Source: Pecten maximus (Eukaryota). From it: a stretch of 64,000 nucleotides of DNA. Position numbers and translations under genes: made by a program. The notes beneath the pieces were generated by a model. It ran no database searches. It was not told the DNA's origin and was given only the letters and a program-made list of their open reading frames with translations. The stretch lies in assembly GCF_902652985.1 (NCBI RefSeq), contig NC_047018.1, forward strand, positions 48,236,001 to 48,300,000, written 5' to 3'. Of the stretch, positions 21,362-43,329 are shown piece by piece; position 1 is the stretch's first letter; every line of letters starts with the position of its first letter.

Positions 21362-22090
21362 CCTAATGAGTGTCCTGTGAGGAATGAGTGTCCTGTGTGA
21401 GTTTTTTTCACGCCCCGCAATTCGTTAAGTGATATTTTTAAATATTTTTTTCGGTATTATACAGACGAACATCGAACCCATTAACATGCCAAATTTGACT
21501 TTGATTGGACGTGCGCATATTATGCATTTTTAACGACATAGTTACGGTGCAGTGCAAATGCGAGTGTCCTGTGAGGTTTTCGCACGCCCCGCAATTCATT
21601 AAACGATATTTTAAAATTATTTTTTCTGTATCATACAGATGAATATTAAACCTAATAACATGCAAAATTTGACCTTGATTGGACAGATGCATAAAATGCA
21701 AATGTAACGGCGAAGACGAAGTAACGGTGCCATAAAACTGCGAGTGTCCTGCGAGGAATGTGACCTGTGAGGAATGAGTGTCCTGCGAGTGTTTTTGCAC
21801 GCCCCGCAATTCATTAAATGATATTTTAGAATTATTTTTTCTGTATCATACAGATGAATATCTAACCTATTAACATGTAAAATTTGACCTTGATATAACG
21901 AGTGCATATTATATAAATGTACCGTCAAAGTTACATTGCAGGGTGTCCCGCGAGGTGTTCGCACGCCCCGTGATTTTGTTTACCTTTCGAATACAGTGTG
22001 TACTATAGGCTAACTAGTGAGTGTCCTGTGGCGCCGTGCCAACCTCGGGTACCTTGCCGCAGGCATGGTCACTAGTGATTGAACTGCTCA
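21362..22090 (+). mobile_element. Left arm of a TIR element with subterminal tandem repeats of about 190 bp (terminus CCTAATGAGTGTCCTGTGAG)
   Basis: Abruptly interrupts the hAT exon; about 4 units containing CACGCCCCGCAATTC; inverted homologues at 43330-44090, 44395-44660 and 63230-63315. Confidence 0.7.
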
Positions 22091-22374
22091 AACTTTAAAA
22101 CTATGTCCGTTATATAAGAATTACACAAGAAATAACATTATTACCCCTGAAATATACGTATTTTCTCCCAAAGTACGTATATAATAATTATACAATTAAT
22201 AACTTTATTACGCGTGAAATATACGTATTTTCTCCCAAAGTACGTATATAATAATTATACAATAAATAACTTTATTGCGACTGAAATATACGTATTTTCT
22301 CCCCAAGTCCGTTTATGATAATTATACAAAAATTAACTTTATCATGATCGAAATATATGTATTTTAATATATAG

Positions 22375-23123
22375 TGTAGCGAAAATAGCCGGGGAACTAT
22401 AATCAAAGTCCCGCAGCCCTCGGTAGGTGTCCTCGAGGTAGCGTCAGACACCCGCCACAATACCCGAGTTTAGAATTAAATAGTGTATTCAGCAACATCA
22501 GCATACGTAGCAACATCCAGCAAAGTAACACCTAGGCACTCCAACTCGATCTCTCCCTCGAACTGCAACTGACTCCCTGCACTCCACGAACTCAACTGCA
22601 CGAACGCCCTCTCTGAACTGAACTCCCTCTCTGACATGAACTTTCACCCCTTTTATACCAAAACCTAACGGAGCGCTACCGGAGCGCCGGAGCCCTGCAG
22701 GAGCGGTGCCGGAGCGGTGCACACATGTACCGGAGCCTTCCGGTGACTTAAATGTGTAAATAACAATGTACATAACACTTAGAAAAACAATTAGCCGCGA
22801 GTAAATGTTGACCATGTGTAATATAGATGGGGCAACGCTGGAGCTCGCAGACGGGTCCAGCCATTTGTAGTGGGTAATAGGGATGAGAGGCGATTAATAC
22901 CTCTCTGACAGGGGCAATAAACATGAACGGGAGCCGGGCAGACGATTACTGCCACGGGCGTGGTGAATTGATTACTTCACGGGATATCATCCCGACGTGT
23001 CCCTCCCCATCTAATTACCAACGGTCAACAGATTGACGGGCTATTAAAATTCCTAAAGCAAAGATGGTATAACAGAAAGTAGAAACATAGAAAAATACTA
23101 CACTAATATAGAAAAATACTACA
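22375..23123 (-). repeat. 3' LTR of element A (749 bp)
   Basis: Matches 30982-31379 plus 39778-40175; preceded on the minus strand by the polypurine tract AAGGAGGGGGAAG. Confidence 0.93.
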
Positions 23124-23799
23124 CTTCCCCCTCCTTAGAAACACTGAACTTCCACTGTTCAGCTAACCACATTCTCTCTCGTTCTCACTAAATAAGATAA
23201 TAAGCAAACCAGACATATGTACAGGATATACATGTATATGTTGTCTACATAACGCATATAAAAACTCTTCTAGATAACTATCATACAAATAGATGGTCAG
23301 ACTAATTGATCTGAATAAACAACCACTAAATAAAACTACAGCTACATTAAAACACATCGCATAGGCGTGGTCTACCCGTCGATGATAACTATAATACTAA
23401 ACTACATAATTCAGAAAAAAATGTTTATCTAACGATTCTCATATCTCGATATCTATACACGCCATTCCAGAACATATTATCAATATCAGGAAAATGTATT
23501 TCTCAGTTCATGAATCTACACACGGCTTTCGTAACATACTATTCAAGAACTTACACAAAATTGCAAAGGTAAACATCCCGAAGGAATAGTTCAGGAGGTA
23601 AATGTTTTTTACTGTTACTGTTAATAATCCAAAGAATGTCGCAGTCTTATTTGATAATAATCCAAATGAATGTCACAGCTTAATTTTGGTAATAATCCAA
23701 GTAATGTCACAGCTTAATCTAAATAATCCAGAGTCACAGTTTTCAACATTAATCCAAAAGAAAGTCACAGGAATGTCATAATTATTAATCATTCCGCAT

Positions 23800-25299
23800 T
23801 TAGAAGGCAGATCTTAAAGGTAACTTTGTGTGAGTGAATTGTTGTTTATTCCGTCTCCTCCTCCTCCATTTAACACCTCCCGGTGATTCATATCCACTTT
23901 CGGATTCTGTTTCTGACTCTTCATTAAACTTGTGTCGTTGGATACGATTTGATATATCCTTTATTAGCCCTCCGCATCCCGGTTCACTAGAAATGGTAGT
24001 CTCCATAGACACATTTAGTTTCTCCTTCTCGATTTTGGGCAATTTTTGGTACTGGTTCCGTTCATCGACAGTGTTTGACCCGTCATTGGCTTCGAGCGTT
24101 TCACGGTTTTGTTGGTTATGGAGTGTTCGGTCATACCTATTGTACCTGATGTTTTTCTCCGTTTCCCGACGAGGGGATCGGATGTTTTCTCTGGTACAGT
24201 TGGTTATCCGACTATCCCCTCTCCACTTAATCGTGTGTGCCCGGGGATTACCTTGCATGGGTCGTTTAACTGCTTCAGTATTGTACCCGTCACTGGTCAC
24301 GAGCGTTTCACGGTTTTGTGGGTTATGGAGTGTTCGGTCATACCTATTGTACCTGATGTTTTTCTCCGTTTCCCGACAAGGGGATCGGATGTTTTCTCTG
24401 GTACAGTTGGTTATCCGACTATCCCCTTTCCACTTACCCGTGTTTGCCCGGCGATTACCTTGTATGGGTCGTTTAACTGATTCGATCGGACCTAGACCCT
24501 CATGCCCGACCGGATGATTGTCCAAACTATAGTTAAACATGTCTCGCCGTGCACAACCATCACGTGCATGGTTCCTCTTCGGCCTTTTCTTCGTATTCCA
24601 CCTATTTCTGGGGAAACGTGGACTGTGGGCTCTCCGTTCCGCGTCCGAATCAACGGACATAACAGGTCTTATAGGAGACTTGTTATATCTCCGTAGTTCT
24701 CTCTCATGAATACGTATGCATTCCTCGTGCGTAGCGTTGGTAACCGCCTCGGTTATACTTCTAGGTTTGGTTCTCCTAACCGCTAAGCGAAACTCTACAG
24801 ACTCACTACATTTATCTAGAAAAGCCTGGAGTGTATGTTCTTCCACTAGATCAGGTTTCCCCCGATAGGCTCGCCGGTATAAATCTTCCAGGGCTTGGCC
24901 AAAATCTCGAAGTGATCCTCCCTTATTCCGGCGTCGTAGTTTGGCTTCAGTCATATGCTTTTCTTTCATGGCTTTAAATCCAAATCTGTCATCCATTTTT
25001 TCCAACAAACGGTTATAGGTACGTTTGCATGACGGTTGGAGACCGTATACATATGAGACAGCCTGGCCACGTAATGTGCTCAATAACACACGCCTTTTCC
25101 GTTCCTCATTCCACATATTCAGTTCGACAAGATTTTCAAAATATTCAAGGAATTCTGGCCATATATCTGTACTTTTTCCAGTAAAAGTTCTCCGTATTGG
25201 GTAATCATGATGCCAAGCTCTCTGGAACGGAAAGTTACTGCATTGCGGGCATAGTTTTGCCTCGCGACCATCAGCGTAAGACACATCATCAAGCCACTT
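23800..25299 (-). CDS. gag: Gypsy-type Gag (capsid) with an Arg-rich C-terminus containing a 69-aa tandem duplication
   Basis: Gag-like pattern WPEFLEYFE...W...LRGQA...Y..L...MDDRFG...SLRDFGQALEDLYRRAY...KPRSITEAV; no CCHC knuckle, and no protease, RT or integrase downstream. Confidence 0.85.
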   Translation of the reverse strand, partial: KWLDDVSYADGREAKLCPQCSNFPFQRAWHHDYPIRRTFTGKSTDIWPEFLEYFENLVELNMWNEERKRRVLLSTLRGQAVSYVYGLQPSCKRTYNRLLEKMDDRFGFKAMKEKHMTEAKLRRRNKGGSLRDFGQALEDLYRRAYRGKPDLVEEHTLQAFLDKCSESVEFRLAVRRTKPRSITEAVTNATHEECIRIHERELRRYNKSPIRPVMSVDSDAERRAHSPRFPRNRWNTKKRPKRNHARDGCARRDMFNYSLDNHPVGHEGLGPIESVKRPIQGNRRANTGKWKGDSRITNCTRENIRSPCRETEKNIRYNRYDRTLHNPQNRETLVTSDGYNTEAVKRPMQGNPRAHTIKWRGDSRITNCTRENIRSPRRETEKNIRYNRYDRTLHNQQNRETLEANDGSNTVDERNQYQKLPKIEKEKLNVSMETTISSEPGCGGLIKDISNRIQRHKFNEESETESESGYESPGGVKWRRRRRNKQQFTHTKLPLRSAF

Positions 25300-25560
25300 C
25301 TAGTCTTCTGAATGATGACTGTCGTTATTAAACTCATTGTTTTTCCTTGACAGTCCTCTAATTCTGACAATTAGCACGGCTATGATACATAACACCAGAC
25401 ATAAAAGCCCAATCTGTCCTGCTTGCCTAGTACGTCGCTGCAGGGTGTCGAGATTGAACACGATGATACTGGATACATAATCGTAGCTCCAATACACCAA
25501 ATACACAGCTAGTCCAGATAGTAATACTATTAGGGACAGTGTGCACATCACGAGCGAACA
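25300..25560 (-). CDS. C-terminal part of a two-transmembrane-helix ORF, in frame with gag and ending in TAG
   Basis: Hydrophobic stretches SLVMCTLSLIVLLSGLAVYLVYW and IGLLCLVLCIIAVLIV followed by basic RIRGLSRK. Confidence 0.65.
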   Translation of the reverse strand, partial: CSLVMCTLSLIVLLSGLAVYLVYWSYDYVSSIIVFNLDTLQRRTRQAGQIGLLCLVLCIIAVLIVRIRGLSRKNNEFNNDSHHSED

Positions 25561-25751
25561 AATAGATTTATCATAGTTATGTAAATGAGTGTATGGGTAA
25601 GTCCGGGTCAGAGTTCAGCACGTGCCGCATTATTGGCACGTGCGATAGGTAGTCTTAGGACAGTGATGACACGTACAGGTGTCTGTGTTTGCCTAGCCAT
25701 TGTACTATACGGACGTGTTTTCTCTATTCCCTTATCACTTGGGTTCACATT

Positions 25752-26522
25752 GACATGTCTGAGAAGGAAAGTTTAGAGGAAATCATTTATTCTCATCCTG
25801 CTCCTCCAGCAAAGGAACCAGCCAGCAATGACGCTTTCCAGGCATTAGGCTTATTCACTACTTACCTGGATGAAAGACTAAAACGTCTCCGTGAAGATAT
25901 ACGAGATGAGCAGGTCATATCTGCTAATTCTTTCAAACGGTTGAAAAAGGAAAGAGAGGTCAAGTTCAAGTTTAATGGTAACCAGAAGCAATTTGAGTTT
26001 AACACAGAAGTGCTTGACGAACTTGAACTAGCAGAGAAAGCTGTTCATAAAAGTGACGCAAACTCTACTTTGTTAAGCCTGTCGAAAATCAAGACTCTTA
26101 TTCATAAAAGAAACAAACTCATTCGTATTGCTGACAAATCTTCTTGTGGTTGGGATACCGTGAAGGAGTATGAAAGTGACGAGCTCGCAAGTGATTCCGA
26201 AGATGAAAAGAAAATCCGTCAGGCGGAATTTCGGGCACAACGCAAAAAACGAGTCCAAAAGAAATCTACTCCAGCAGCCGCGACTGGTGGACCCCCCGGG
26301 AAACTGTATGGCTCTCATAGTATTGACGGTAATCATTCTGGTGCTTTTCGTGGCTCCCCTCAGTTTCACCAGCATTCCAGGTTTCATCGCGGAGGGACCT
26401 GGCCTCAGTTCGGCGGTAGGGGGCGTGGCAGCCCCGCCCCCACAGACTTGTGCCATGCCTGTGGAGGAGTTGGACATTGGAGAGCAAATTGCCCAAAGAT
26501 CACGGATTCAGCCGGAAAATGA
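25752..26522 (+). CDS. gag: DIRS/Ngaro Gag-like ORF1 with CCHC zinc knuckle
   Basis: GNQKQFEFN, KRNKLIRIADKS..GW.TV.EY..DELASDSEDEKKI and CHACGGVGHWRANC. Confidence 0.9.
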   Translation, partial: DMSEKESLEEIIYSHPAPPAKEPASNDAFQALGLFTTYLDERLKRLREDIRDEQVISANSFKRLKKEREVKFKFNGNQKQFEFNTEVLDELELAEKAVHKSDANSTLLSLSKIKTLIHKRNKLIRIADKSSCGWDTVKEYESDELASDSEDEKKIRQAEFRAQRKKRVQKKSTPAAATGGPPGKLYGSHSIDGNHSGAFRGSPQFHQHSRFHRGGTWPQFGGRGRGSPAPTDLCHACGGVGHWRANCPKITDSAGK

Positions 26523-28541
26523 AGACAATTCAGTTAAGTACCGTACTCGAGATTTGTTTGATTGTCAGCTTAATGACGAGAATTATGAAATTTCAGAAAA
26601 CCAGATTTCACGTGATTCAAAGCCAATCTCCAGTGTTAAAGGTCGTTTGAAAAATTCGTTAGACTATTGGAAAAACTGTGTAGAAGCAAACGATTATATT
26701 TTGAGCGTTTTATCTGATGGTTATTTAATACCTTTTGTATCCACTCCATACAAGAAATGTAATAATAACAATAAATCAGCTATGAACCATTCAGAATTTG
26801 TAACGGAGGCTATCTTAGAATTGTTACAAGCAGGGAGTGTAGTTGAAAAGTTTGAAATTCCACATGTTGTAAACCCGTTGTCCGTTTCGGTTAATGCCAG
26901 CGGCAAAAAAGTCTGATTTTAGATCTGCGTGAAGTAAACTTTCATGTTTGGAAAGAGAAAATTAAATTTGAAGACTGGAAAACAGCTATGGATTACATCG
27001 TACCGAACGGGTACATGTTTAAGTTTGATTTGAAATCGGGTTATCACCACGTGGACGTTCATTCTTCTCATCAAAAATATTTAGGTTTTTCATGGGTCAT
27101 TGACGGGAGAATTAGGTATTTTTGTTTTACTGTTCTTCCTTTCGGTCTTTCTTCAGCCCCGTACATTTTTACAAAAGTGCTCCGACCCCTCGTTAAATTC
27201 TGGAGGAAAAATGGAATTTGTATTGTTGTGTATCTTGATGACGGATGGGGTATACGTTTAGATTTTGACACCTGTAAAGGTCATTCAGATTTCGTCAGAC
27301 AGAGTCTTGTTTTTGCTGGTTTTGTAGCTAATGATGGAAAGTCTATTTGGCAACCCACGCAAAGATTAGAATGGTTAGGGATTAATTGCGATTTGGTTAT
27401 CAACGCTACATCAATTCCTATAAGGAGGCTAGATAGTCTTACTCAAGTTCTTAGGAAGATCTGTACCCCCGGGTGTGTGGTGACAGCACGTCAAGTAGCT
27501 AGTGTCACGGGCAAAATCATATCCATGTCCCCTGTCTTGGGTAATATAACTCGATTGATGTCTAGGTATTTATACAGGTTGGTCGTGAAAAGGTCGTCTT
27601 GGGATTCCGCTTTCGTGATAGACAAAGATAACGAATGTTGGAGTGAAATGATGTTCTGGCTTTCTAAGGTTAACTCTCTCAATTTGAAGTATATAAGCAA
27701 TCGTATCCAAAAAAGTAAATGTGTCGTATACTCTGATGCGAGTAGTCATTCTTGTGGAGCTTATGTAGTGGAAGTTGACAATGCAGTATTTCATCAAACT
27801 TGGTCGTATGAAGAGTCTCTCAAAAGCTCAACTTGGAGGGAGCTCTATGCTATTCAGTTAGCAATGTCAGAATTTCGAGATATATTGAGAGGTCAAATAA
27901 TCACATGGTATACTGATAATCAAAATTGCGTCAGAATTATTGAGAGCGGAAGTTCGGTGTTAGAGCTTCAAGTTTTAGCCTTGAAAGTTTTCCAGTTAGG
28001 TATCTCTCTTAATTTGTCGCTTACAGTTGAATGGATCCCTCGGTCTGACAATGAGAAAGCTGATTACATCAGTAAGATCATATACTATGATGATTGGGGT
28101 ATATCAAAAGATTTTTTCGAGTTTTTGAATGATATGTGGGGCCCACATACTGTGGACCGATTTGCTAATCATTTCAATTCTAAAACATTGAGATACAATT
28201 CAAGGTTCTGGTACGCTGATTCTGAAGCAGTTGATGCGTTTTCCCAAGATTGGTCGAATGACAATAATTGGCTTGTTCCTCCTGTATATTTAGCTCCTAG
28301 GGTGATAAAATACATGATAGATTCACGATCTTCTGGTACGTTAGTGCTTCCCAAGTGGATTTCGGCCCCCTTTTGGCCCTTACTTTTCGGTGATCACCTA
28401 GAAACCCAAACCTGTATAAGCGACATTCTTGTTTTCACTGAAAGTGACCGCATTTTCGTACCGGGATCACACAAATCGCTGTTTAATTCAGTTGATTTTA
28501 AGGGGCACGTGCTTGTAGTACGTTTTGATTATCAACAATAA
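26521..28541 (+). CDS. pol: DIRS/Ngaro pol: reverse transcriptase, RNase H and N6-adenine methyltransferase-like domain, with one frameshift near 26910 (5' boundary approximate)
   Basis: VNPLSVS..SGKK/LILDLR, FDLKSGYHH, LPFGLSSAP, YLDD, YSDAS, TDNQN, WIPRSDNEKADYISK and VDRFA..DAFSQDW..WLVPP. Confidence 0.92.
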
Positions 28542-28677
28542 GTTGTAGCCAGGTGATTGGTTAGTGGTGATTGTGAGTGCGTGATCAGCTAGAAGGACTG
28601 TGATTGGCTGACACGACACACCCACTTACTATCATCGTATGTAGTTGTAGTTTTGTGCACTCATGTGGAACCGACAA

Positions 28678-28907
28678 GGCCACTTGCATTGACTCGAGAT
28701 GTATATATTGTTGTGCGGCCACTTGGACATTGACATGAAGCATGTATTGTTACAATTGATGCCACTTGGCTTTTGACTGAAAATTACTTTGAGGCCACTT
28801 GGCTGTTGAAATGAATAATTAGCTTTTTTGTTTGCTTATGTCATGAAAATATCATGAGGCCACTTGGCATTTGATATGAATATACGAGGAGGCCACTTGG
28901 CTTTTGA
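28678..28907 (+). repeat. Six interspaced copies of GGCCACTTGGCWKTTGA between pol and the recombinase gene
   Basis: Copies start at 28678, 28717, 28760, 28793, 28858 and 28891. Confidence 0.85.
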
Positions 28908-29048
28908 TAATAGTGTACATGTACACTTTTTAGATAATTGATGTTTAGAGTATATTTATTGGATTTACTCAGCTTGTGGACACATGAAGGTTAATTTGTT
29001 GTTGTTGTTTTTTTTTATAATTTTTTAGTGGTGATCATAATGAAATAA

Positions 29049-30095
29049 ATGTTGTTGATTAGAGTTTGTTTACACGTTACAGATATTTTCTCGAATGGTA
29101 TTTGGAAGGAGCGTTCCTTAATAAAAGACGCTAGTCTACGTAGTCTGGCTTCTGACCTACACGACTTCGTGCTAAAATCAAGGGCATATTCTACCAGTAA
29201 AGTTTACCAAAGGCGATTTAAAAAGTGGGTTGAATGGTGCAGCCTTTACCCAGAGATCACCCCTATTCCAGCCAAGGAATTCCATGTTGCGTTGTATTTA
29301 AAACAGATCGCAGAGTCTTCAAAAAGTTCTACTGCGATTGATCAAGTATTTTATGCTATCGGTTGGGCCCACGATTTGGCAGGATTGCATAACCCTTGTA
29401 AATCAGCGTTCGTCAATCACGTGAGAGAAGCTGCCCGCAGGCAATTAAAGACATCCGTTATTAAAAAAGAACCGCTTACTCCAGAACATTTGAAAAGCTT
29501 AGTCTCGAATTTTGCGGGTCATAGAGCTAATTTGAGTGATTTAAGGCTTGTAACATTGTGCCTGTTAGGATATTCTGCATTTTTACGTTTTTCGGAAATT
29601 TGTAATATTAGAAGATCAGACTTAATGTTTTTCGAGTCGCACATGAATATAAACATACCAAAGAGTAAAAAGGACATTTACAGAGAGGGTAACACAGTTT
29701 CAATAGCTAAGCTAGATTCCCAATGTTGTCCTGTTTCTATGACACTTAGGTATTTGCAGCTTGCTGAAATTCCTCACGATTCTTCCGAATTTATATTCAG
29801 ATCTTTGTCATTTTGTCCAAAATCGAACTCCTATAAATTAAGAGGTACTTCACCGTTATCATACACTAGGGCCAGGGAGGTGTTACTTGAAAAACTGTCA
29901 AGCATAGGACTTGACCCTTCAAAATTTTGTCTACATAGTTTGAGGTCTGGCGGTGCGTCGGCTGCGGCTAATTGTGGGGTATCTGACAGATTATTCAAAG
30001 CGCATGGTCGATGGAGGTCAGAAACTGCCAAAGATGGCTATGTGAAAGACAAGCTTGAGTCAAAATTATTTGTATCAAAGAATTTGGGTTTGTAA
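29049..30095 (+). CDS. Tyrosine recombinase of the DIRS/Ngaro element
   Basis: Catalytic motifs FLRFSE, KSKKD, HSLRSGGAS and HGRWRS...GY; open 348-aa frame; possible splice acceptor (TTACAG) near 29082. Confidence 0.93.
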   Translation: MLLIRVCLHVTDIFSNGIWKERSLIKDASLRSLASDLHDFVLKSRAYSTSKVYQRRFKKWVEWCSLYPEITPIPAKEFHVALYLKQIAESSKSSTAIDQVFYAIGWAHDLAGLHNPCKSAFVNHVREAARRQLKTSVIKKEPLTPEHLKSLVSNFAGHRANLSDLRLVTLCLLGYSAFLRFSEICNIRRSDLMFFESHMNINIPKSKKDIYREGNTVSIAKLDSQCCPVSMTLRYLQLAEIPHDSSEFIFRSLSFCPKSNSYKLRGTSPLSYTRAREVLLEKLSSIGLDPSKFCLHSLRSGGASAAANCGVSDRLFKAHGRWRSETAKDGYVKDKLESKLFVSKNLGL

Positions 30096-30730
30096 CTTGA
30101 TGTTAGTTCTTACAAAGTTCTATGTACATTTTAAGGGATTACATGGTAATAAACATGTTAACAGTGTATCCCGTTCTTTGTTGTCTGTACGTCCTCATAT
30201 AGCTAGGCGGACTAACTCCCAGTAATGAGTTTGAGTTTATATGATAAATAATTTATGTTCGTTTGAGAGAAACGAATTAGAATATAAATAGATTTATCAT
30301 AGTTATGTAAATGAGTGTATGGGTAAGTCCGGGTCAGAGTTCAGCACGTGCCGCATTATTGGCACGTGCGATAGGTAGTCTTAGGACAGTGATGACACGT
30401 ACAGGTGTCTGTGTTTGTCTAGCCATTGTACTATACGGACTTCCCACCCACCCACCCCTTTTTGAATCGTCTGTGTCTACTTTTGTTTTCGTTCTGTGAT
30501 TGTAGAACCTTTATTGGACGGACACAACATGGATGTTTGTAACACTCCGAAGTCGGATTGAAGCGAAGACACAATGAGAAAGTGATGGACTCTGTGCTTG
30601 TGATTTATTGTTATATCTAAAGTGAATAAAGTACGTCCTCATATAGCTAGGCGGACTAACTCCCAGTAATGAGTTTGAGTTTATATGATAAATAATTTAT
30701 GTTCGTTTGAGAGAAACGAATTAGAATATA

Positions 30731-30928
30731 ACAATCGTTTGTTGAGCGATCTCGACCGGACGTGGTAACTTCTTTCAGTCCTTTATCATGACGGCTCCTA
30801 TTCAGGGGAGTTCTAGCCGCCCGATACCTTCCAACTCTAGGTGTGCTGGTGTCACGTGGATAAAATGGCAATCCATCGAATCCTGAATCCGCCAAACGTT
30901 CGTTGATGAACGTCTTGACCTGCTCCAT
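30731..30928 (-). CDS. N-terminal part (MEQVKTFINE...) of the two-TM ORF of element A, separated from the rest by the DIRS insertion
   Basis: ATG about 30 nt after the PBS; joins 25560 in frame (...STNDC|CSLVMCT...) when the DIRS element is removed. Confidence 0.65.
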
Positions 30929-30958: not shown

Positions 30959-30979
30959 AATCCCTAACCGCTGCCACCA
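30959..30979 (-). promoter_or_regulatory. Primer-binding site of element A, complementary to the tRNA-Leu 3' end
   Basis: TGGTGGCAGCGGT 2 nt after the 5' LTR end. Confidence 0.85.
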
Positions 30980-33571
30980 ATTGTAGAGAAAATAGCCGGG
31001 GAACTATAATCAAAGTCCCGCAGCCCTCGGTAGGTGTCCTCGAGGTAGCGTCAGACACCCGCCACAATACCCGAGTTTAGAATTAAATAGTGTGGGTCGT
31101 CGAGAATAACAATTCAACACCGTCGGAAAGTTTCAGTCTATGTATTCAGCAACATCAGCATACGTAGCAACATCCAGCAAAGTAACACCTAGGCACTCCA
31201 ACTCGATCTCTCCCTCGAACTGCAACTAACTCCCTGCACTCCACGAACTCAACTGCACGAACGCCCTCTCTGAACTGAACTCCCTCTCTGACATGAACTT
31301 TCAACCCTTTTATACCAAAACCTAACGGAGCGCTACCGGAGCCCTGCCGGAGCGGTGTCGGAGCGGTGCACACCTGTACCACAGGCGCTTGCCTAGAAAA
31401 TATCACTTTCGATTTTTTTTTTATATGACAGCGGTATGTGTAATGTGTAAGAGGGAAGGTTGGCAACTACGCCACGAGCGAAACGGCACCCCATCTCACT
31501 TCAATCGACTAAAAAACACATGTATTCAAACTGACATGGCGCATACTATATGCGACCGTCATCAGAAAACATTCATCTTTAACCTACCGTGCCACTCAAT
31601 ACGAATTGTTACATCCAAAACACAATAATCCGTGAAAACATCGCCGAATTCCTCGCTCAGAACGCCATTTCTCAAACTGCTCCCTGAGCCTGTCCAGATT
31701 CTTCATTTACATACGAAGTTGAAACGTCATGTGATTGTATAATCGGCTGCCGCCAGGTGCACTTTCGGGGGTCATCTCCGCATACTTTTTCGAGATTTCA
31801 TCGAATGAAATTGACAACTGTTGGAACTGTCGAGGCTTCAAGCAAGATAAGTTCATCGTGAAGACAACTCTAATTACTCCAGAAATGGATCCCAAGGCAC
31901 ACAGTTTTGATATGTTGTTTTGGTATATTTTCATCCTTTCAGAAACATGATTTTCGGTGTTATTCAGGTTATAGGAAGTCTTCCATGTGTTTACAAAATT
32001 ACCAGTAGGCTTACAGTAGCCCATAGAATAGTTCATATTACTAGGCATGTTAGGCTTAGATACTGTGGGTAAACGGCTTTAAAAGTTTAACCACGTGTTT
32101 ACAAAATTACCAGTACAGATTAATCCATTTAACTATATCTGTAGGCGCCTAGATACATGTACTTTGGGCGAAGGGCTTGACGTTACTGTCGGTTTTCTGC
32201 CCCCGAAACGTACGATGCGAAGTCGACACTTTTCAGCTTCGTATTCTATGTCAACATCCCATAATAAATCATTCTGCCAATGTATATCAACTCGAGTTGA
32301 TCTTAAACTATCGTGTAAGGCAGTCCTATATTATGGTCATGTGGACGCATTAACCTATGCAGTCACATTGGTTTTATTTTATTGGGTTTTTTTAATGTTT
32401 TTAGATCTAGGGTCCATTTGAAAGGGACGGTAGATCTATCTAACTAAGTGCAGGTTAGGCCTAGATTCTTAATATTGTGTTGGCTGTTTGCCCAAGGAAT
32501 TGGACATGTCAGTATTTAGGTGTATCTCACCCGCTGTGTATGTTACGTATGCGTATGCGTACTGTGCGTACACGGAATGTGTATATATTCGTGTGTATGG
32601 GGCCAGGTTTTGTGTACAAAACCTAGTTTTAAGACTATTTGACACCTTTGATTTTTTATTTGATGGGTGTTTTGTGTAGTTAGGTTTATTGTATGATTTA
32701 GAAGAAGTAGGCGTTTAGCATAAATGACACAATTTGTAAATATCATATACATATCATACATACTTGCATATAGACGTATGTTATTGTTAGATACAGTGAT
32801 AATTGTAGTATCCTAATGATAGAATCTGTATATTGTAGCTTTCCAACTATGGTCAAGCGCTGTAATGACAGGAGACCATAATACAGATGGTCCCGGGGAG
32901 TACAACGTTTTGTCAGTGTCCATTTGAAATTAACCAGTATGTTAAAGGAAGTGACTGGTCTATGTGACCCATACCTGGATACGTACCTTATGTATGGTCT
33001 GTGTGACCTACATGCTACCTGCTTTTGCTGGTCTGTGTGACCTACATGCTACCTGCTGTTGCTGGTCTGTGTGACTTACACACTACTCACTGTTTAAGTT
33101 CTGTGCGACTCACATCTTACATGTTGATCTGTGTGACCTACATGCAACTGATTGTGACTGGTCTGTGTGACCTACATATACCCATATTGATCCATGTATT
33201 GGATGTCGTCAGAGGAGTAACTATTGGATACAGACCCGTTGGAAAGACTGTATTTACTATTATATTTTGATAACCGTAAAGTACTTCATAGGTAATTGAG
33301 CTATAGAGAGAGGGAGAGAGAACTAGTTGAATGTGAGAGCGTTCATTTACTGTGTAATTATTGTTGTAAATAAATTGTATATATTGAATCTCAGTATTTG
33401 ACCTTATGTATTAGGGAAGTGAGCAATCCCGTTCAGTTCCCGTTACACATACCAATTGATATATTTTAAGTATTTGTTGACAAACATTTGTGAGACATGT
33501 TATGCTGTTCTCCAACAGCTCTTGTTGCAATTTTGCAAAAGCATTCCCTGGGATCAACCAAGTTTAGCTAA

Positions 33572-36500
33572 TTTAGGTCATCTGACCCGAATGGTCAGGA
33601 TAACCTATAGTCATCATGCATCGTCAGTCATTATCTGCCGTCCCTAAACTTTTAATTCAAACAACTTCTTCTTGATAACCAGAAGGGTGAGGGATACACA
33701 TATTTTGCATGTAGCTTCCTTGGATAAAGCTCTACCAAGTTTGTTCAAGTGGATGACCTTGACCTACTTTCAAGGTCACAGGTGTCAGTCTTAATTCTTC
33801 AAACAACTTCTCAATAACCAAGTGGCCCAGGGACTTGAGCCTGTAGCATGCTCAGGTGAAGAGCTACCAAGTTTGTTCAAATGAATGATCTTGACCTACA
33901 TTAAAGATCACAGGGTTCAAATAGGCTTATATCTTTAAACAATGAGTTTTTGATAGCAAGGAGCTCTGTTATGTGATATCAGGCCAATAGTTTGCTGGAA
34001 TGAAGGAATAGAAAATGTATTGACCTGAATAAACCTAGCCTACAATGATATTTGAATAAAGTGGTAATCTGCAAAGTATTTGCAGAAATGACCTAGATAT
34101 ACTTACAGGTAGAGTCATGTGGGCAATTCAGGCCCATTTGACCTCTTGTTGCATCTTTCTGATCTCGAACCTAGAAATGCCCCTTTAATTACTTGTTATA
34201 GTAGTATGATGTACTCAAAGTAAAAAGTCAGATGACCGTTAAGGCCCATCGGGCCTCTTGTTTTGTCCCTTACCCCAGGGGCTTGAGGATTGGAGTGAAA
34301 GAGGGTAAAATTTGCTGAAATTCCATGACTCAGATATGGTAGAATCAAATAATCTTCATAAATATGTATATATATATATTCTTGACCTGGGGGTCTCGCA
34401 TTCCCCCTGGGAAAAATAGATTTAATTTTGAAAACCTCAAGAAATTTCTACATATTAATGTATATAGGGATTGAACGGTGTTTATTGGGTCACCTGAGAC
34501 AAAGTCTCAGTTGACCTACTGCGATCACCTTTTGTCTGGCCGCCTGTGTCGTTAGGCATCTGTCGTAAACAATTTACATTTTCAACTTCTTCTCAATTAT
34601 CAACAGAACAACAGACCTGATATTGGGGCTGTAGAATGCAGAGTTGAAAGGCTACCAATTTCATTCAAGGTCACAAAGGTCAAATAGACTAAATTCTTTA
34701 AACAATGATTTCTTGATAGCAAAGAGACCTGGATGTCAGGCTAGTTGTGTACTGGAATGAAGGGCTAGAAAATTTATTGACATGAATAAACCAAGCCTCA
34801 CTGATATTTGAATAAAGTGGTTATCAGCATACTAGTATCTGCAGAAATAACCTAAATCAACTTCAAAGTTGCTGTAGAGCCATGTGAGCAATACAGGCCC
34901 ATTGGGCCTCTTGTTTTTGTTAAATTCACATATTCTATGCAAGGGCCTGTGATCTAGGGCCAGAGGTGTGGGGCCCAATAGAGAAAATAGATGCATTAAG
35001 TCATTAAGAAGCTAAGAACATAATATATTTTGACAAAGTTTGATCTAAAGCATCCTTTACAGAATGGGAACCAAGCTTTTATAAACTGGGCTCAATAGAG
35101 GAAATATAGCAAATTCTTAAACATGTTTTTTTTTGTATAAGAAAAAAACTGAGTGAAGGAGAACCAATTTTGTACAAACATACAAATTAAAGTAAATCTT
35201 TTAAATTGTTACTTAGTTCATTTAGTCTTGAACAACAGTTGAATGGATATTGATGAAATTTTTGTCTGGAACATTATTGACCTACAGAGAGAGATCTAAT
35301 AGTTTGTAATTTTCCCTTTCTTTTTTTCATTCTTACTAATCTGGTAACATTAACATATATGGAACCTACATATAAAGTTTGAGAAACACTCTTCCAGTAC
35401 TTTTCAAGAAATTACAATAACAAACATCAATGGTCATAATCAAAGATTGCCACCTGTCTAACTATAGTTTATGGATGGTGATATGGACAAGATCAACTTG
35501 TGGGGCAAGTGATTTGTCTGTGTATTTGTGGGATGCAAGCCACAAGTTTGAATTCGATACAGACATCACATTTCATTTTCGTTCATTCCGTCACAAAAAA
35601 AGCACAATCGAATTGAGTTTAATGATAAATTGTAGGAAAAAAAACCCAAATTTACATTAAATTTCATCTCCTATAGGTGACAAAAAAATTGCACCGAATG
35701 AATTTTGCCATACTGTGGCATCCATTGTCCGTCCACCAACAAGCAATTTCTTCTTCATAACCGCGATCGGAATTGAAGAAAAATTGACTGGTAGCATCAT
35801 TATGGGTGGGGATTAGAAATTGTACAAATGGTGGGGCTGAGGGGCCGGGCAAAACAGGGGTCAAATTGGTTTAATTGATATAAACGACTTCTTCTATGCA
35901 ACTCAGCAATCAGTATCCCTCATATTTGACTGGTAGCTAAGCTCCTTATCGGGTAGGGTTTCAAAATTGTACAAATGGTTGGGTTGACCCCTTTGGGGGC
36001 CTTGAGGGGCAAGGCCAAAAGGGGGCTCATTTGGCAATATTGATATCAATGACTTCTTCTCTGGGACTAGGCCATGTATGATATTGATATTTCAGTGGTA
36101 ACATCCCTGGGAGGTTTGGATTTAAATTTATACAAATAATGAGGCTGACACCCTCTCCCACCAACCCCCAACCCAAAGGGTTTGGGGTCTTTCTCCACCC
36201 TTGAAGACTTCTTTCTTTACTTTTAATTTTGAAACCATTCAGAGATCCCCACCCTACAATCATATATAGCTTCCCTCACTCGTTGGATCAAGAGATGAAC
36301 CTAATTCTGATGTAAAAGTAGGCCCAGGGTTCTTTCCCAACCCCAAGGCACTTATTGTTTCTTTAAATACAATCATGTTGAATCTTGCCTTCATTTCTGG
36401 GTTATATCTTTGAAGCATCTGAGATCCCCACAACTTAAGTATACATCAACAAATAAAGCTATTTTCAAATGGAACATACACATTATTTTGATGTTTGCTT

Positions 36501-37290
36501 AAAAAAATTAGGTGAGTGATACAGGTCCTCTGGGCCTCTTGTTATTGTATACAGATGGAAAGAAAAAAAGTAGAGAAAGGATGAATTTTTTTTTAAAATG
36601 GTAAAATGGTAGGTTCCAATATCATTTTTCTCGAGTGAATTATTGTGATCACCTTAAAGCTTTTATCCATGCATTGTTGTGCATCATCCACCTTTAGTTG
36701 TTAAGCAATTTTCGACTTCTTCTGAAAAACAAATCATGTCGAATGCAAAAAGACTAGCACAGGGTCATATGATATTGAGTTATTAGCATGCTGGGATGAA
36801 GGGCTATCAAATCTATTCTAGATATGAGGTCACTAAGGTCAGATGTGTTTAATTTAATTATTAATCATCATTATTATTAATCATAGAACTACTGTATTTT
36901 AAGATAAACTGCTTCTGTACAAGAAATCTCAAACACCCTTTTATTATATCACCTGAGACAAAGTCTCATTTCAACCTATCGCTATCACCTTTTGTCTGTG
37001 GTGTCATGTGTTGTCCAGTATGTGACATAAACAATTTACATTTTTGACAAATTCTTGTCAATAACAAGGAGGCCCAGACTCATGATATAGTATGCTGTGA
37101 TGAAGGGCTTACAAAGTTGATTTAAATTATTAAATCTAGCCTACTATTACATTGAATCAACTGGTGATCAGCATAGCAATGACCTAGATCAACTTCATAT
37201 TTGCATTAAAATATAATATCCAAGAAATGGATCTTCACTGCCTGGTTTCCATTCAGCATATGAGCAATTCAGGCCCTTTGGGCTTTTGGT
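33572..37290. mobile_element. Cluster of several pearl/HINE-like elements (about 33572-34150, 34485-34915, 35700-36543 and 36945-37290)
   Basis: Repeated TCACCTGA starts, TGACCT/AAGGTCA cores and AGGCCC..GGGCCTCTTGTT hairpin ends; same family as 15821-16692. Confidence 0.7.
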
Positions 37291-37815
37291 TTCATTGTTA
37301 ACATGGATTAAAAGGGGTATTAACCTCAGCATACATAGGGTTCTGTCCCCGAGACATACCAGTCTATAAGCTTAGCATATAAGAATTATATTTGTTATTT
37401 ACTACTTGAAAATGCTCATCATTTTGGAAGTGGGATGACTAGTTTTCCTTTTTAATCATTATAATGACTATAATTATAAAGTCAACTCCCAATTCCTGCT
37501 ATAACAAGGAGACAAACATTAAACTTACTTCATCCTCCCAAAACACATATTCATTCACTATATCCATGCATTTTACACAAAAGATATTGATCTACTTTAC
37601 ATGTATATGACCAAACTGTAGATTGAATGTTATAAATTACAAAACATGCAAATCAGTGAACAATGCAGGCCCATCAGGCCTCTTCTACATTGATACAATA
37701 TGATTGAACCTTTTATAAGCACCTAACAATAGTAAAAAACATTTTGACACATGACTTTTTTGTATTTGTAATGTTTGACATAGTGAACTGGAGTATATGA
37801 ATAGATATCTGGAAG

Positions 37816-38618
37816 TTAGAATTGAAAAAAGTGATTACATGTATTATATAACAATAGTTTTGAAACTTCATCTTCATCTACACAAAGCTGCAGAACATCA
37901 GATTGGGGAGTGTTGTCTTTGATGATGCTGTGGTGAAACCTGGTCATCCATACCTTGCTAAGTAAAGGACAAGGATGGACACCATCAGAAAGCAAACCCA
38001 TTTGGTATGACTTTCTGGTGCTGCCTTTTCCTGACCTATACCTATATCTAAAGAAAATTTCATGCAAAAATTACAATTTAGATAATTGATTTTGTAGTTG
38101 AGCAGAGTTACCTGTCGATCCAGTTCTCGGTCTTGGTCAGCAAATTCACTGGAGTTTGGGTGACCTCTATTCCCATTCCACAACACCACAGAAATTGGTG
38201 GAATCTCCACGAAAACTACCTTTGTGTTGTGAAGGCTTGACATGAACTGTTTTCCCCTATTGTACTCTGATATTATGTGGTTTTCACTTTCGTCATTATA
38301 ATTACGGACTTTAATGCACTTCCCCTCTTTTTTAGTGAGGTCGCAAGTACCCAACCATAAATAGACAATAACATCAGTAAATTGAGTTTCGTTCTTTTTC
38401 AGATGATCAGTCAGTCGATTGACACCTTCTGTTGTGGTACAGCCTGGTTTACAAACAAAATGAATTTGTGGAGATCTTAAATTGTTCACTCTTTCGACAT
38501 GCAAACCTTTACTATCTGAAACAATCACAGGTTGTGTTGAGAGATAACCTGGCATAGTAAACCTACAAGTATCATAGTTCACACCTCTGCTTACATATTT
38601 TTCAAGTTTACAAGCCAT
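37816..38618 (-). pseudogene. SGNH/GDSL-hydrolase-like ORF with one frameshift near 38045
   Basis: Block I VIVSDSKG, block II KPG, block III LWLGTCDL and block V LSDGVHP (in the second frame). Confidence 0.75.
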
Positions 38619-40279
38619 ATTGACAACAGTTGGAGTGAATTTACAAATGTATTTACAATGTCAGTATATTGTGAATTACATGTATATGTTTTCAAAACTT
38701 AATTTGAACCAATTAAACTTAAATAGATTCTACATCATTCAGGACATCAATTTATATATAACATATACAGTACTGAAAAAAGTCTTATTGCAATCAAGAT
38801 AATCTTCAGATTGCAGACATATTATAGATATATTGGTCAATGGAAAAGAGGAGAGTAAATTTATGACAAGGTGGAGAGAAATATTAATTAGTATTGATAC
38901 TTCTAACTTAAATGAAAAAGCTAATATATTACACTCTTTGGAAATCCAGTCAAATTAGCAACCCATACAATATATAGGCCTGGGCCTAATGACCATGCAC
39001 AATTTCCTAGTCCTACAGGAACTTATTTTTATTGAATATTACAATGATAAGGTGGAGAAAAAGATACGATTGAAAAATGAGAAGAAATTAACGACTGAGA
39101 TTGCACTGCAAACTATCTGGGAATGACTGTCGTCTGCTAATTTAAACAATGCAGGTTAATATTTAGATTAGGTCTTGATTAATCTGTTGTTTTTTACGAT
39201 TATATAAAGGACCTCATGTAATTACCTGACAACATATATATCTACAATATTAACATAAGTATAAAAACAGTCAGCATGTAGACATGTAGCATCGAAAGGT
39301 GTTCCAAACCTACCTAAAAACGATAGTGAAGTACATGATGTACTTGCTGTATGCGTAAAAGGTATGCGGAGATGACCCCCGAAAGTGCACCTGGCGGCAG
39401 CCGATTATACAATCACATGACCTTTCAACTTCGTATGTAAATGAAGAATCTGACAGGCTCAGGGAGCAGTTTGAGAAATGGCGTTCTGAGCGAGGAATTC
39501 GGCGATGTTTTCACGGATTATTGTGTTTTGGATGTAACAATTCGTATTGAGTGGCACGGTAGGTTAAAGATGAATGTTTTCTTATGACGGTCGCATATAG
39601 TGTGCGCCGTGTCAGTTTGAATAAATGTGTTTTTTAGTCGATTGAAGTGAGATGGGGTGCCGTTTCGCTCGTGGCGTAGTTGCCAACCTTCCCTCTTACA
39701 CATTACACATACCGCTGTCATATCAAAAAAAAAAAATCGAAAGTGATATTTTCTATGCAAGCGCCTGTGACCTGTACCGGAGCCTTCCGCTCCGGTGACT
39801 TAAATGTGTAAATAACAATGTACATAACACTTAGAAAAACAATTAGCCGCGAGTAAATGTTGACCATGTGTAATATAGATGGGGCAACGCTGGAGCTCCC
39901 AGACGGGTCCAGCCATTTGTAGTGGATAATAGGGATGAGAGGCGATTAATACCTCTCTGACAGGAGCAATAAACATGAACGGGAGCCGGGCAGACGATTA
40001 CTGCCACGGGCGTGGTGAATTGATTACTTCACGGGATATCATCCCGACGTGTCCCTCCCCATCTAATTACAAACGGTCAACAGATCGACGGGCTATTAAA
40101 ATTCCTAAAGCAAAGATGGTATAACAGAAAATAGAAACATAGAACAATACTACACTAATACAGAAAAATACTACAATAGGATATCTGTGATACTTATTAA
40201 AGTGTATATATACACCTCTTTTATTTAATCACTCGAAAATACGCATCACATCAAATAAAAAGCAAACAGAAAATTAACA

Positions 40280-42320
40280 ATTTATTTATTTTTCAATTTA
40301 TTTCAATTTATTTCACTCAGGCGCACTTTATATTGTGCGCGACAAGAGGTCGATAAGAAATGCAATAATACAATGATATGATTGACAGTAAAGTACACAT
40401 ATTCATCTTCTACACTCCTCAACTCCTCGTACAACGATAGATTCGACATTTCACTATTCATAGCCAATAATTCGTACACTAGCATATACAACATACCATT
40501 TACTACCACAATATTACAATTCCATCTTAGTGCGATCATATATTTTAACATACAAATTCAACTAACATGCAGATACCTTCAATCATGATATAACAATCAA
40601 ACCATCATATACACTACAATAATGTTATATTTAGCAAAAATGATCAATAGTATATGCAGAAAAAAGTTTACAATTTGATGTGTAAATTCATATATTATTT
40701 TTTAAATGCCTTTCTAGAGTTGTATAAACAGGGACATATTTGATAATATTTTGACATTGCATACGGATATCAATCCTTTCATTTTGTGAACCGATGGGTT
40801 TGAGGTATAATAAATAGGTATATATTTTCTAAGAATTTGACTGACATAAGTATTTAAACATGTAAACAGATACTGATATTCGTTTCCAATTCCATTTAAA
40901 CATAGCGGACAGATTCTGTTTTCACGTGGTATTCTAGTCCATCGCCCAGTCTCTATGGGCAGAATATATTACTGGTTCTTAGTTTACATATAGTTACTCT
41001 ATCTTTAGGTTTGAGCCTAATCAAGTATTTTTCAAACTGAAATTGATGTTTAAATATAATATATGTTTGCCCCTTAGAGGAACTTTCAATGTCGTTATAC
41101 CATTGTTGTATAAACTGGTCATGCAAAATAGCTTTAAAGTTTACTCTAAGGTAATTTTTATTCACAGTGCAAGTTTTTTGCTGTAACCATACATAACTTA
41201 GTCCCGTGCAATTGAGTAGATTCTTGATATAGGAAATCCATTTAAAATCAACAAAATCGTTTTCGTGTAAATTAAGCATAAGCTTGTACATTAAACTAGA
41301 CAATTTATTTTCACTTGTAATCAGTTTATACCAAAACATTAGCATCCTTGATTTAATTTCAATATTTAGAGGATACCTGCCTGTTTCCCCATAAATCATC
41401 ATATTTGGTGTAGATCTACGTATGTTTAAAACTTTTTTACAAAACTGTACATGTAATTTCTCAATCATATTGGTATTTTCAAATCCCCATATTTCAGAGG
41501 AGTACAAAAGGATAGGGGATATTAATACATCAAACAATTTTAATTGAAGGTCAATTGGTAAAATGATATTTGTAATTTTCTTATATAATGCATACATTGC
41601 TTTTTGAGCCTGTTCAACGAGTTTTTTTCTTGCTTTACAGAAGCTGCCGTCATAATGAAATAACAATCCTAGAAAAGAGTAACTATCCTGTGTATCAAGC
41701 TCTTCACCAAAAAGAGTAAAACGAATATTTTGTGCTTTACTTTTTCTTTTTTCAAAGATAACCACTTTGGTTTTATTGAGATTAACTTTAAGTTTCCAAA
41801 TAGTACAGTAAGTTTCAAATTCACGGAAAGCATTCTTTAGACCTTCAGCTGTTTCTGACATAACAACCGTGTCATCTGCATAGAGTAAGATAAACAATTT
41901 AACAAATACACCCATGCGCTCTTGAAATAAATTATCAATATGATTGAGTTGGTCAACATTATTTTGCATGAAAAATTCTTCTAAATCATTTAAATATATT
42001 GAAAACAAAAATGGGGAGAGATTTTCGCCTTGTTTTACCCCGACATGACACGTGAAAAAATTGATCATACCATTTCTAGTTTTTACGCAAGATTTAGTAT
42101 TTGCATATAAATTAATTATAACTTTAAATATTTTTCCTGTAATATTATTCTTTAGTAATTTCTTCCATAAACCTACCCTCCAAACAGTATCAAACGCCTT
42201 CCTAAAATCAATAAATGAACAAAACAGTTTTTTATTCTTTGAAAAGTATATAGATATCAAGGCATGCAGGATAAATATATTTTCAGTTGTAGAGTAGCCT
42301 TTCCTAAATCCAGCTTCAAC
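40280..42320 (-). mobile_element. 5'-truncated non-LTR retrotransposon (RTE-X-like LINE): RT domain, C-terminal Cys/His motif and (GAAATAAATT)n tail
   Basis: AGFRKG, FIDFRKAFD, GVKQGENLSP, LYADD and GETGRYPL; after a frameshift IETGRW..RENRICPLC..GNEYQYLF.C; clade assignment is an inference. Confidence 0.85.
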
Positions 42321-43329
42321 AAAAGTTATAATTATAACTGCCTTTTGTTGCGATAATAATGTCCATGACCCGTACATTGACATCAACACAACATGAGGCT
42401 GAATTGAATAGTCGCGTGTCATTAATTATTACATAATATGGTGGTCGATATACGGTACGATACCCGGAGAAAATTCATCACCTCACATAATTTGGGCAAA
42501 AATTTACAGTGAGTTAGTTGGCATCACTAATCAATTAATATACTGTTAATTACCTTTTGAAAAAGGAACGATGTATACAAATAATTATGGTTAAAAAATA
42601 TAATGAAAAGTAAAATCCTCCAATATTTAACTAACGCTCACGATCAACATGTACACCAAGAAAATGCACAGTCTTAACTTTTAATGTAGTTTCTAATTAC
42701 AAGTATTTATTAAAAGTGAAAATACACTGTCTACATAGTTAACCCACTTATAAAGTTTAAATACATTTCAATGTATAATTGACGGCAGTACTGCTTTTCG
42801 TACATTACCGATAACAGTTGTTTTTAACGTTTAAAATTTATGGCCTTTATTTCGTAGAGTAGCGCAAAAATCTTAACCTATTTACCCTTTACTCAGTGAT
42901 GACTTCAAAATAATAAGATAATAAAATAATAATAGTTAATATTCATATCTATTACACGCCTATCAATTCAACAAAACGTGCAAAAAACTGACATGACACT
43001 CACCTTAAACTTACTGTAAATTCGTCGTAGCATTTATTTTATCCAAACATATTTTATTGACAAAAAGTACAAAGGGATTTGGCACAAGTTTTTGCAACTT
43101 ATCAACGCCCTTTCCCAAAACAAATACAAAATTACAATATTTGACAAAATAAAGACTAAAGGTCACCAATTCAATATTTTTGTAATATCTTTGTAACATT
43201 GCTCTCCGATTTGTCAAAAGGTAGGAAGTACAGAACAAACAAATATCATGCATTTTAAAATCTATTACTTGTGTTTCGTAGCATTTGCTAAAATGTACTT
43301 GTTGATAGTAATAGACATCGCGTATATGT

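Follow-up and report, generated by a model that had tools for sequence, protein, structure and literature searches.

Capsids of Gypsy-type retrotransposons are regarded as soluble and intracellular, and membrane binding is credited to the retroviral matrix or to Env. A membrane-anchored Gag is known from murine leukemia virus (MLV), in which glyco-Gag is a minor, single-pass isoform that is made from an upstream start and has its Gag part outside the cell. Here we describe a Ty3/Gypsy long terminal repeat (LTR) element in a 64,000-nucleotide stretch of the Pecten maximus genome (NC_047018.1, positions 48,236,001 to 48,300,000; the window hereafter), a decayed, minus-strand copy without pol, in whose intact relatives two predicted transmembrane (TM) helices precede the capsid within one open reading frame (ORF). 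Unlike in MLV glyco-Gag, this hairpin belongs to the main ORF, and a cytosolic capsid is predicted.

Other described systems share parts of this organization. Murine intracisternal A-particle (IAP) elements and yeast Ty1 are likewise env-independent, and their Gag is brought co-translationally to the endoplasmic reticulum (ER), as would be the case here; in the accessible part of one account (PMC3945221), the signal recognition particle delivers IAP Gag to the ER membrane, with no translocation, and Ty1 Gag is ER-targeted though it has no signal or TM domain; neither, as far as this text goes, is a two-pass membrane protein, and neither is a Gypsy element. For Drosophila MDG1/412, the accessible text of another report (10.1101/2025.03.14.642691) presents sORF2 as a FAST-like protein encoded by a separate ORF, with one TM helix and an N-myristoylated ectodomain. 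Our elements share with it a small TM module on the 5' side of the capsid, an env-less Gypsy context, and Cys residues and a polybasic stretch near the membrane, but a fusogen of that kind is expected to be a separate ORF of 60-210 aa with an N-out topology, whereas here the hairpin is fused to the capsid and carries no myristoylation motif. Wheat Sabrina and WHAM (with Wilma) are, in the part of PMC9744471 available to us, semi-autonomous gag-only elements co-evolving with an autonomous partner; the window's element resembles them as described there in being pol-less, in retaining Gag and in having an autonomous partner, and differs in its animal host, in retaining no protease, and in that one capsid lineage is joined to the ends of two helpers. 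Finally, ASPRV1 also has a hydrophobic stretch before a Gag-like domain, but it is a domesticated Gag-protease host gene with a single such stretch, which according to the accessible text of PMC11402058 is not predicted as TM by DeepTMHMM.

The element shares with Ty3/Gypsy its TG...CA LTRs, a primer-binding site (PBS), a polypurine tract (PPT), a 4-bp target-site duplication (TSD; criterion 4-6 bp), a two-lobed helical capsid with matches to PNMA2, Arc and dArc1, and, in the pol-bearing relative L005, a -1 frameshifted order of protease (PR), reverse transcriptase (RT), RNase H (RH) and integrase (IN), the window copy itself being without pol. It differs from Ty3/Gypsy in the two predicted TM helices that open Gag and in a Macro domain and a C2H2 zinc-finger ORF found in two helper families (A and B). 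We consider it fairly probable that the element is a decayed pol-less offshoot of an env-less Gypsy clade with a two-helix Gag, whose capsids assemble while tethered to a membrane and which borrows RT and integrase from helpers.

A DNA search of the genome gave 28 matches, from which 18 places were fetched and 10 extended and mapped; LTR matches occur in at least 40 places. The mapped copies form four groups: the pol-less subfamily of the window element (nA; L001-L003, with an internal length of 2.4-2.8 kb, and the fragment L004), a second pol-less subfamily (nB; L006-L011, of which L006 and L007 have common flanks and are probably one locus, and the degenerate L013-L015), and two pol-bearing groups, helper A (L005/L019) and helper B (L012, L016/L020 and L017/L021). 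Helper A, whose LTR pair is 99.8% alike, has a gag, a pol frame (PR, RT, RNase H, Macro and integrase by Pfam in L005) and the C2H2 ORF, and shares LTR, PBS and PPT with nA, which makes it the autonomous partner that a preliminary description of the window had envisaged. In helpers A and B pol is in the -1 frame and the sequence TTTAAAC lies 33 bases upstream of where gag ends; a Macro domain lies between RNase H and integrase (about residues 1018-1137 of L005 pol, and in L016 and L017; Pfam E 2.6e-28). This domain, of which we found no account for Gypsy-type elements in the literature searched, could act as an ADP-ribose-reversing counter-defence; a third pol-bearing family (C) is without it. 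Pol is followed in helpers A and B by a third sense ORF of ~260 codons, which has a single C2H2 zinc finger and is free of TM segments:

L019:5907-6695, minus strand: C2H2 ORF
L020:4240-5016, plus strand: C2H2 ORF
L021:5951-6727, minus strand: C2H2 ORF

No CCHC knuckle was matched in Gag of families A and B. An env-bearing Gypsy element (errantivirus) was considered and rejected, as none of the three helper families has an env or other TM-containing ORF of at least 80 aa besides gag.

The pol-less form has transposed as such, as had been suggested from the window copy alone: pol-less copies are independent insertions with distinct TSDs, and in L007 and L010 the LTR pairs are 100% identical over aligned columns and each copy has its own TSD, so this form moved very recently. 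Internal lengths are 2.4-3.2 kb in 7/9 fetched loci with both PBS and PPT, the remaining loci having 5.1 and 4.5 kb, and the hydrophobic part and the capsid are joined in one open frame in five natural copies (L002, L005, L007, L010 and L016).

Three further observations concern these copies. L003 (1751-3187) has tandem LTRs at the 3' end of its nA copy and a different, integrase-containing ORF inside its 5' LTR. A 348-base LTR-derived contig from the 5' LTR region of L002 (6046-6245 joined to 2900-3030), in runs guessed to be RNA (X1 and X7), reached a depth of ~1400 vs ~5 for internal sequence and possibly represents solo-LTR-driven transcripts. Other contigs, from runs likewise guessed to be RNA, cover both hairpin and capsid of related copies as a single piece; these (X2 record 3, in which gaps break the frame, and X4 record 8) were not counted as evidence.

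The natural Gag is a single ORF of 410-450 residues, comprising ~65 disordered residues, two hydrophobic helices, a long disordered linker (median 59 residues) and the capsid. In the intact sister proteins, Kyte-Doolittle hydropathy over 19 residues peaks at 2.1-2.85 and the uncharged runs span 27-31 and 19-20 residues, in keeping with the earlier proposal of two TM helices in frame with Gag. Two such peaks arose in 0-2/1000 shuffled N-terminal regions, ruling out a chance hydrophobic stretch, and an N-terminal signal peptide was rejected, helix 1 lying ~67-95 residues in. We then compared 84 paired-hairpin proteins drawn from the homologues listed (see below; the cut differs slightly from the one used there). 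Their inter-helix loop has 5-27 residues (median 15), with 0.12 basic residues per residue vs 0.19 in the flanks and a sequon in 2/84; helix 2 is followed by a basic stretch (mean 3.3 K/R in 15 residues), and at least one Cys lies within the hairpin in 80/84. On this basis Gag is predicted to be an integral membrane protein, in both insertion and topology. Neither helper A nor nA, nB or 42/84 of the listed homologues has a Met between helix 2 and the capsid; therefore leaky scanning would yield no soluble capsid in helper A, nA and nB, and the anchored form would be the main Gag.

AlphaFold, run with an 82-sequence alignment, gave disorder to residue 60, helices at 63-98 and 103-142, a disordered linker, and a capsid with a predicted local distance difference test score (pLDDT) above 90. 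The best PDB matches of the capsid in Foldseek were PNMA2 and Arc (E 1e-4 to 7e-4), with dArc1 and metavirus ORF1 also found; the ESM Atlas returned only retrotransposon-Gag clusters (0.82-0.86), which we treat as a lead only, and a clade profile against PDB sequences found nothing below E 0.28. A homodimer prediction for the hairpin, in which the alignment was not used, gave no answer, at a score of 0.00.

Such a hairpin might serve as an envelope substitute, taking capsids to the plasma membrane or to extracellular vesicles and enabling cell-to-cell or host-to-host transfer in the manner of Drosophila sORF2, only fused to Gag. In favour of this, no env or other TM ORF was found in the helpers; the hairpin Cys residues and the basic stretch after helix 2 echo features of sORF2 and FAST proteins, and horizontal spread of env-less elements among bivalves has been reported (Metzger 2018, in the part accessible to us). 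However, sORF2, in the available text, is encoded separately, crosses the membrane once with its N-terminus outside and has a myristoylation motif, whereas the two helices here are predicted to be N-in/C-in, with the 5-27 residue loop as the sole possible ectodomain, and just 2/84 listed homologues have an MG start, making this explanation unlikely in our judgement. Membership among sORF2/FAST-like fusogens was rejected: the module is capsid-fused and has two helices, an MG start is confined to those 2/84, and the polybasic stretch alone fits.

The N-terminal region bears on another explanation, by which the hairpin module acts apart from assembly, being cleaved off by protease, or driving a phosphodegron-dependent, membrane-linked degradation that limits Gag dose, or serving as a Vpu-like adaptor. 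The motif DSG-phi-x(1-2)-S/T occurs in 17/84 listed N-termini (shuffle mean 0.2, maximum 2), and S/T-P-x?-R/K occurs in 67/84 (shuffle mean 21.8); the DSG motif is also present in the genomic loci L005, L010, L016, L034, L036-L038, L041 and L045, which include hairpin and non-hairpin families; since it is long and disordered, the linker would also be accessible to cleavage. We take the DSG motif to be beta-TrCP phosphodegron-like, and together with the S/T-P sites it marks a possible cell-cycle control of Gag turnover. Yet most hairpin proteins lack this motif, and it is also found in the N-terminus of 6/15 hairpin-less sister loci, which shows that it does not depend on the hairpin; the links to beta-TrCP and Vpu, moreover, are tentative. 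We regard a role apart from assembly as quite improbable.

The two-helix architecture is a property of a whole clade and is not specific to the pol-less form. A search with helper A Gag (422 aa, hairpin included) found 129 protein homologues, of which 120 were listed; setting aside the 25/120 with fewer than 90 residues before the capsid left 95, and a hairpin was scored as two or more Kyte-Doolittle peaks (window 19) of at least 1.6. Among these listed matches, 83/95 long homologues had two or more peaks, and in none of the 95 did a peak lie within or after the capsid. The named homologues are mostly from Mytilus, and the 84 hairpin proteins collapse into 51 clusters at 90% capsid identity, 26 at 80% and 7 at 70%. 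Because the query included the hairpin, a capsid-only genome search was made as a control (148 matches, 20 fetched). The hairpin was present in 5/5 loci of the third pol-bearing family (~53% capsid identity), and hence in all three pol-bearing, env-less close families of this genome, and in 0/15 Gypsy loci at ~30% capsid identity, where the highest peak was 0.64 and one locus was nearly without an N-terminal extension. Hairpin bearers form one side of a capsid tree (77 rows, quick tree; Shimodaira-Hasegawa-like approximate likelihood ratio test (SH-aLRT) 99) and of an RT-RH tree restricted to families of this genome (14 rows, support 100). A profile search, in which 7999 candidates were scored and 154 proteins found, added little beyond the first homologue set; looking for longer fusions yielded 2 Mytilus models. 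The idea that a satellite contributes the membrane tether was thus abandoned, as the helpers and the whole clade already carry the hairpin.

We therefore place these elements as a variant within Ty3/Gypsy with an apparently new architecture. In the literature searched, whose scope lay outside Repbase, GyDB and subscription journals, we found no description of a two-helix Gag; it is not described in the accessible parts of PMC13524379, PMC6238403, PMC10294476, PMC8220671, PMC11402058, PMC7264820 and 10.1101/2021.11.30.470311, and the word 'transmembrane' is absent from the main texts of PMC6238403 and PMC10294476.

The relationship between pol-less copies and helpers differs along the element. 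In sliding-window comparisons, nA is 94-97% identical to helper A from the PBS through the N-terminus to the hairpin, mostly 93-98% over the LTR outside indel-rich parts, 86-96% over the 3' untranslated region and 83-93% over a remnant of pol, but only 70-78% over the capsid N-domain; nB is 96-100% identical to helper B in the LTR and 89-95% at the gag start, and its capsid N-domain is 74-77% identical to either helper. The capsid N-domains of nA and nB, by comparison, are 86-94% identical to each other. Trees of the N-terminus and hairpin join nA to helper A with support 100 and reject a pol-less clade (approximately unbiased (AU) test, p 0.002 and 2e-40). The capsid half-domains were examined on DNA, with L011 and L013-L015 left out; for the capsid N-domain, nA with helper A (AU p 0.002) and nB with helper B (AU p 0.001) are both rejected, and on the whole protein pol-less capsid monophyly has support 99. 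Since the nA capsid N-domain is shared with the nB lineage and rejects grouping with its helper, the pol-less copies do not appear to be simple deletion derivatives. Our reading is that an old, capsid-bearing satellite core acquired its ends from two helpers; on established principles of retroviral genetics this would imply co-packaging. An unsampled third helper as donor of the capsid is an alternative.

Substitution patterns point to purifying selection on the capsid of the pol-less Gag. In pairwise Nei-Gojobori estimates from the five natural ORFs, some of which are saturated, the synonymous divergence (dS) of pol-less capsids from both helpers is 1.5-2.9, with a ratio of nonsynonymous to synonymous divergence (dN/dS) of 0.06-0.11; dN/dS is 0.24-0.27 between nA and nB and 0.34, on 14 differences, within nB. 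These values bear on the possibility that pol-less copies are passive deletion derivatives with an idle Gag, or that their divergent capsid acts against the helper. In favour of this, an existing helper matches them in LTR and hairpin, frames are broken in most pol-less copies, and the C-terminal half of the nA capsid groups weakly with helper A (support 76/80). Against this stand the low dN/dS values, the rejected helper groupings for the capsid N-domain, and a linker motif and tail of the pol-less copies that occur in no helper, and we judge it very unlikely. The preliminary description had held that copies with pol would make the window element a simple deletion derivative; such copies exist, but simple deletion is rejected by the capsid N-domain.

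Combining these results, we outline how the elements may work. Gag is one ORF (disordered N-terminus, helix-loop-helix, linker, capsid), which the helpers continue by the -1 frame at TTTAAAC to PR-RT-RH-(Macro)-IN. As there is no N-terminal signal, the first 65-95 residues would be made in the cytosol; by established rules, helix 1 is predicted to serve as the internal signal-anchor, with helix 2 acting in stop-transfer, leaving the N-terminus and capsid cytosolic and the short loop in the ER lumen. Given the slip site and the -1 pol frame of helpers A and B, Gag-Pol would be anchored too, and Gag and Gag-Pol may crowd on the membrane, with the hairpin taking over the role of matrix and myristate. 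The capsid lattice would form on the cytosolic face of an endomembrane, producing membrane-associated or wrapped particles as IAP does at the ER; cleavage by the protease of the element may afterwards release the capsid from these. The pol-less subfamilies retain helper-matched LTRs, PBS, PPT and gag start, plus their own capsid N-domain; their RNA would be co-packaged with helper RNA and Pol and mobilized in trans by helper Pol, with ends exchanged by template switching.

Several observations weigh against this account. The membrane prediction is based on Kyte-Doolittle hydropathy, charge bias and the AlphaFold hairpin, for which the pLDDT is 61-84. Among the listed long homologues, 8/95 have one hydropathy peak and 4/95 none. 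Between families, hairpin dN/dS is 0.41-0.63 vs 0.06-0.27 for the capsid, suggesting that hydrophobicity is kept and sequence is not, and the value of 1.7 for nA vs helper A, on 6 differences, is uninformative. A linker Met is present in helper B (two) and in half of the listed homologues, and canonical late-domain motifs are not enriched, being found in the N-terminus of 0/84. An intact ORF remains in just 3 of ~9 independent pol-less copies, the pol-less clade is weak for the capsid N-domain on DNA (62/55), and for the capsid C-domain the AU p for pol-less monophyly is 0.24.

A bolder version, which we put forward as doubtful, would have an undescribed marine-invertebrate clade encode its capsid as a two-pass membrane polyprotein and send out of the cell membrane-wrapped particles that need neither matrix nor Env, with a capsid-only satellite lineage that persists by repeatedly swapping LTRs and hairpin with whatever helper is active; if true, this would add a third way of becoming infectious to those by Env and sORF2. 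A clade-wide, two-helix anchor in an env-less Gag would in any case offer a natural test of how retroelement capsids became membrane-associated, and may bear on the movement of env-less elements between cells or aquatic hosts. Such a compact Gag can be localized and imaged directly, with relevance to capsid-based RNA delivery (PNMA2, Arc), and the pol-less lineage would stand as a clear example, in an animal, of a semi-autonomous satellite and would also point indirectly to co-packaging.

In the window, the element and the insertions that interrupt it are laid out as follows.

22371..22374: TSD ATAG, left copy, 4 bp (partner at 40176-40179)
22375..23123, minus strand: 3' LTR, 749 bp, TG...CA ends
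23124..23136, minus strand: PPT, a motif common to pol-less A and B copies and helper B
23137..23799, minus strand: 3' untranslated region, 86-95% identical to helper A, without pol or env
23800..24060, minus strand: C-terminal tail, acidic then basic, common only to the two pol-less subfamilies
24069..24520, minus strand: pre-protease pol-start remnant, which has come to lie in the gag frame and lacks a TTTAAAC slip site
24660..25190, minus strand: capsid domain with a PNMA2/Arc-like fold (structure predicted for the natural protein of the helper), its N-terminal half 87-92% identical to nB and 70-75% to the helpers
25300..25302, minus strand: stop codon (break 2), private to the window copy among the copies examined
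25366..25422, minus strand: predicted TM helix 2, followed by a basic stretch (hydropathy of intact sister proteins)
25489..25557, minus strand: predicted TM helix 1 in signal-anchor position, ~67 residues from the start (hydropathy)
25560..30731, plus strand: nested retroelement of the DIRS order (tyrosine recombinase), its split direct repeats arranged as A1..B1 A2..B2 (break 1)
30732..30928, minus strand: first 65 codons of gag (ATG at 30926-30928), with DSG-phi-x-S and S/T-P motifs
30967..30979 (about), minus strand: PBS, two bases from the 5' LTR, presumably matching the tRNA-Leu 3' end
30982..31379, minus strand: 5' LTR, inner part, 98.3% identical to the 3' LTR
31380..39769, no strand assigned: insertion splitting the 5' LTR, 8.39 kb, ~410-bp terminal inverted repeats, 8-bp TSD
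39778..40175, minus strand: 5' LTR, outer part, 97.8% identical to the 3' LTR
40176..40179: TSD ATAG, right copy, 4 bp

Removing the DIRS insert, whose site is empty in 3/3 other copies examined, restores one frame, which by frame arithmetic runs from the ATG to the stop at 25300-25302 in 153 codons including the stop, just as the preliminary description had it. Its statement that no PR, RT or IN is encoded in the ~660 bp between the gag stop (23800) and the PPT also holds, Pfam finding no models but those of Gag type, in the 499-codon frame. The PBS, PPT and TSD that it had reported as intact were found, but the LTRs are not intact, as the 5' LTR is split by 8.39 kb and the 3' LTR lacks ~50 bp present in the 5' LTR. 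The downstream 499-codon frame (23800-25299; Pfam DUF1759 E 7.8e-5, PNMA E 1.3e-3) does contain the capsid, but not all of it is Gag: it also includes the in-frame pre-protease pol remnant and the short tail. The remnant is 89-93% identical to the pol start of the helper, and contains a duplicated 207-bp unit that is likewise duplicated in helper A. The capsid is preceded by a CxxC-NFPFQRAWH linker that is present in pol-less copies only and in none of the database homologues compared.

The stop codon decides how the upstream frame is to be read. A separate, Cys-rich TM protein of 152 aa with stop readthrough into Gag, as the preliminary description had entertained, would suit the window copy, where the frame is continuous across one stop. 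Yet the same position is a sense codon in 4/4 other A-type copies (L001, L002, L003 and L005), and intact ORFs of the other subfamilies also lack the stop and encode a single TM-Gag. The 152-aa product is an accident of the window copy, because all four sister copies are open at this position, and a separate small protein has next to no chance of being right.

By Pfam, the coding content of the DIRS insert is a zinc knuckle, RT and RNase H, together with a Dam-like and a tyrosine recombinase (phage integrase) domain; these domains and its split direct repeats, which are 99-100% identical, place it in the DIRS order. We take it to be PAT-like, on account of the Dam-like methyltransferase domain. 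Its pol start is broken near 26900, and it integrated without a clear target duplication. The 8.39-kb element (31380-39769) has inverted ends (CAC...GTG) that are 97% identical; no transposase ORF was seen in it, its largest ORF (238 aa) having no Pfam match.

Elsewhere in the window lie an RT fragment (40953-42425, minus strand), a Gypsy-type RT-RNase H (47660-49237, minus strand), a Harbinger-type DDE_Tnp_4 transposase (50293-51351, plus strand) and a frameshifted Gypsy gag-pol (54998-58775, plus strand). A 3.2-kb array with a unit of 28-35 bp occupies 7480-10658, and a repeat family of 174-215 bp occurs twice, in inverted orientation, at 21367-21975 and 43398-44086.

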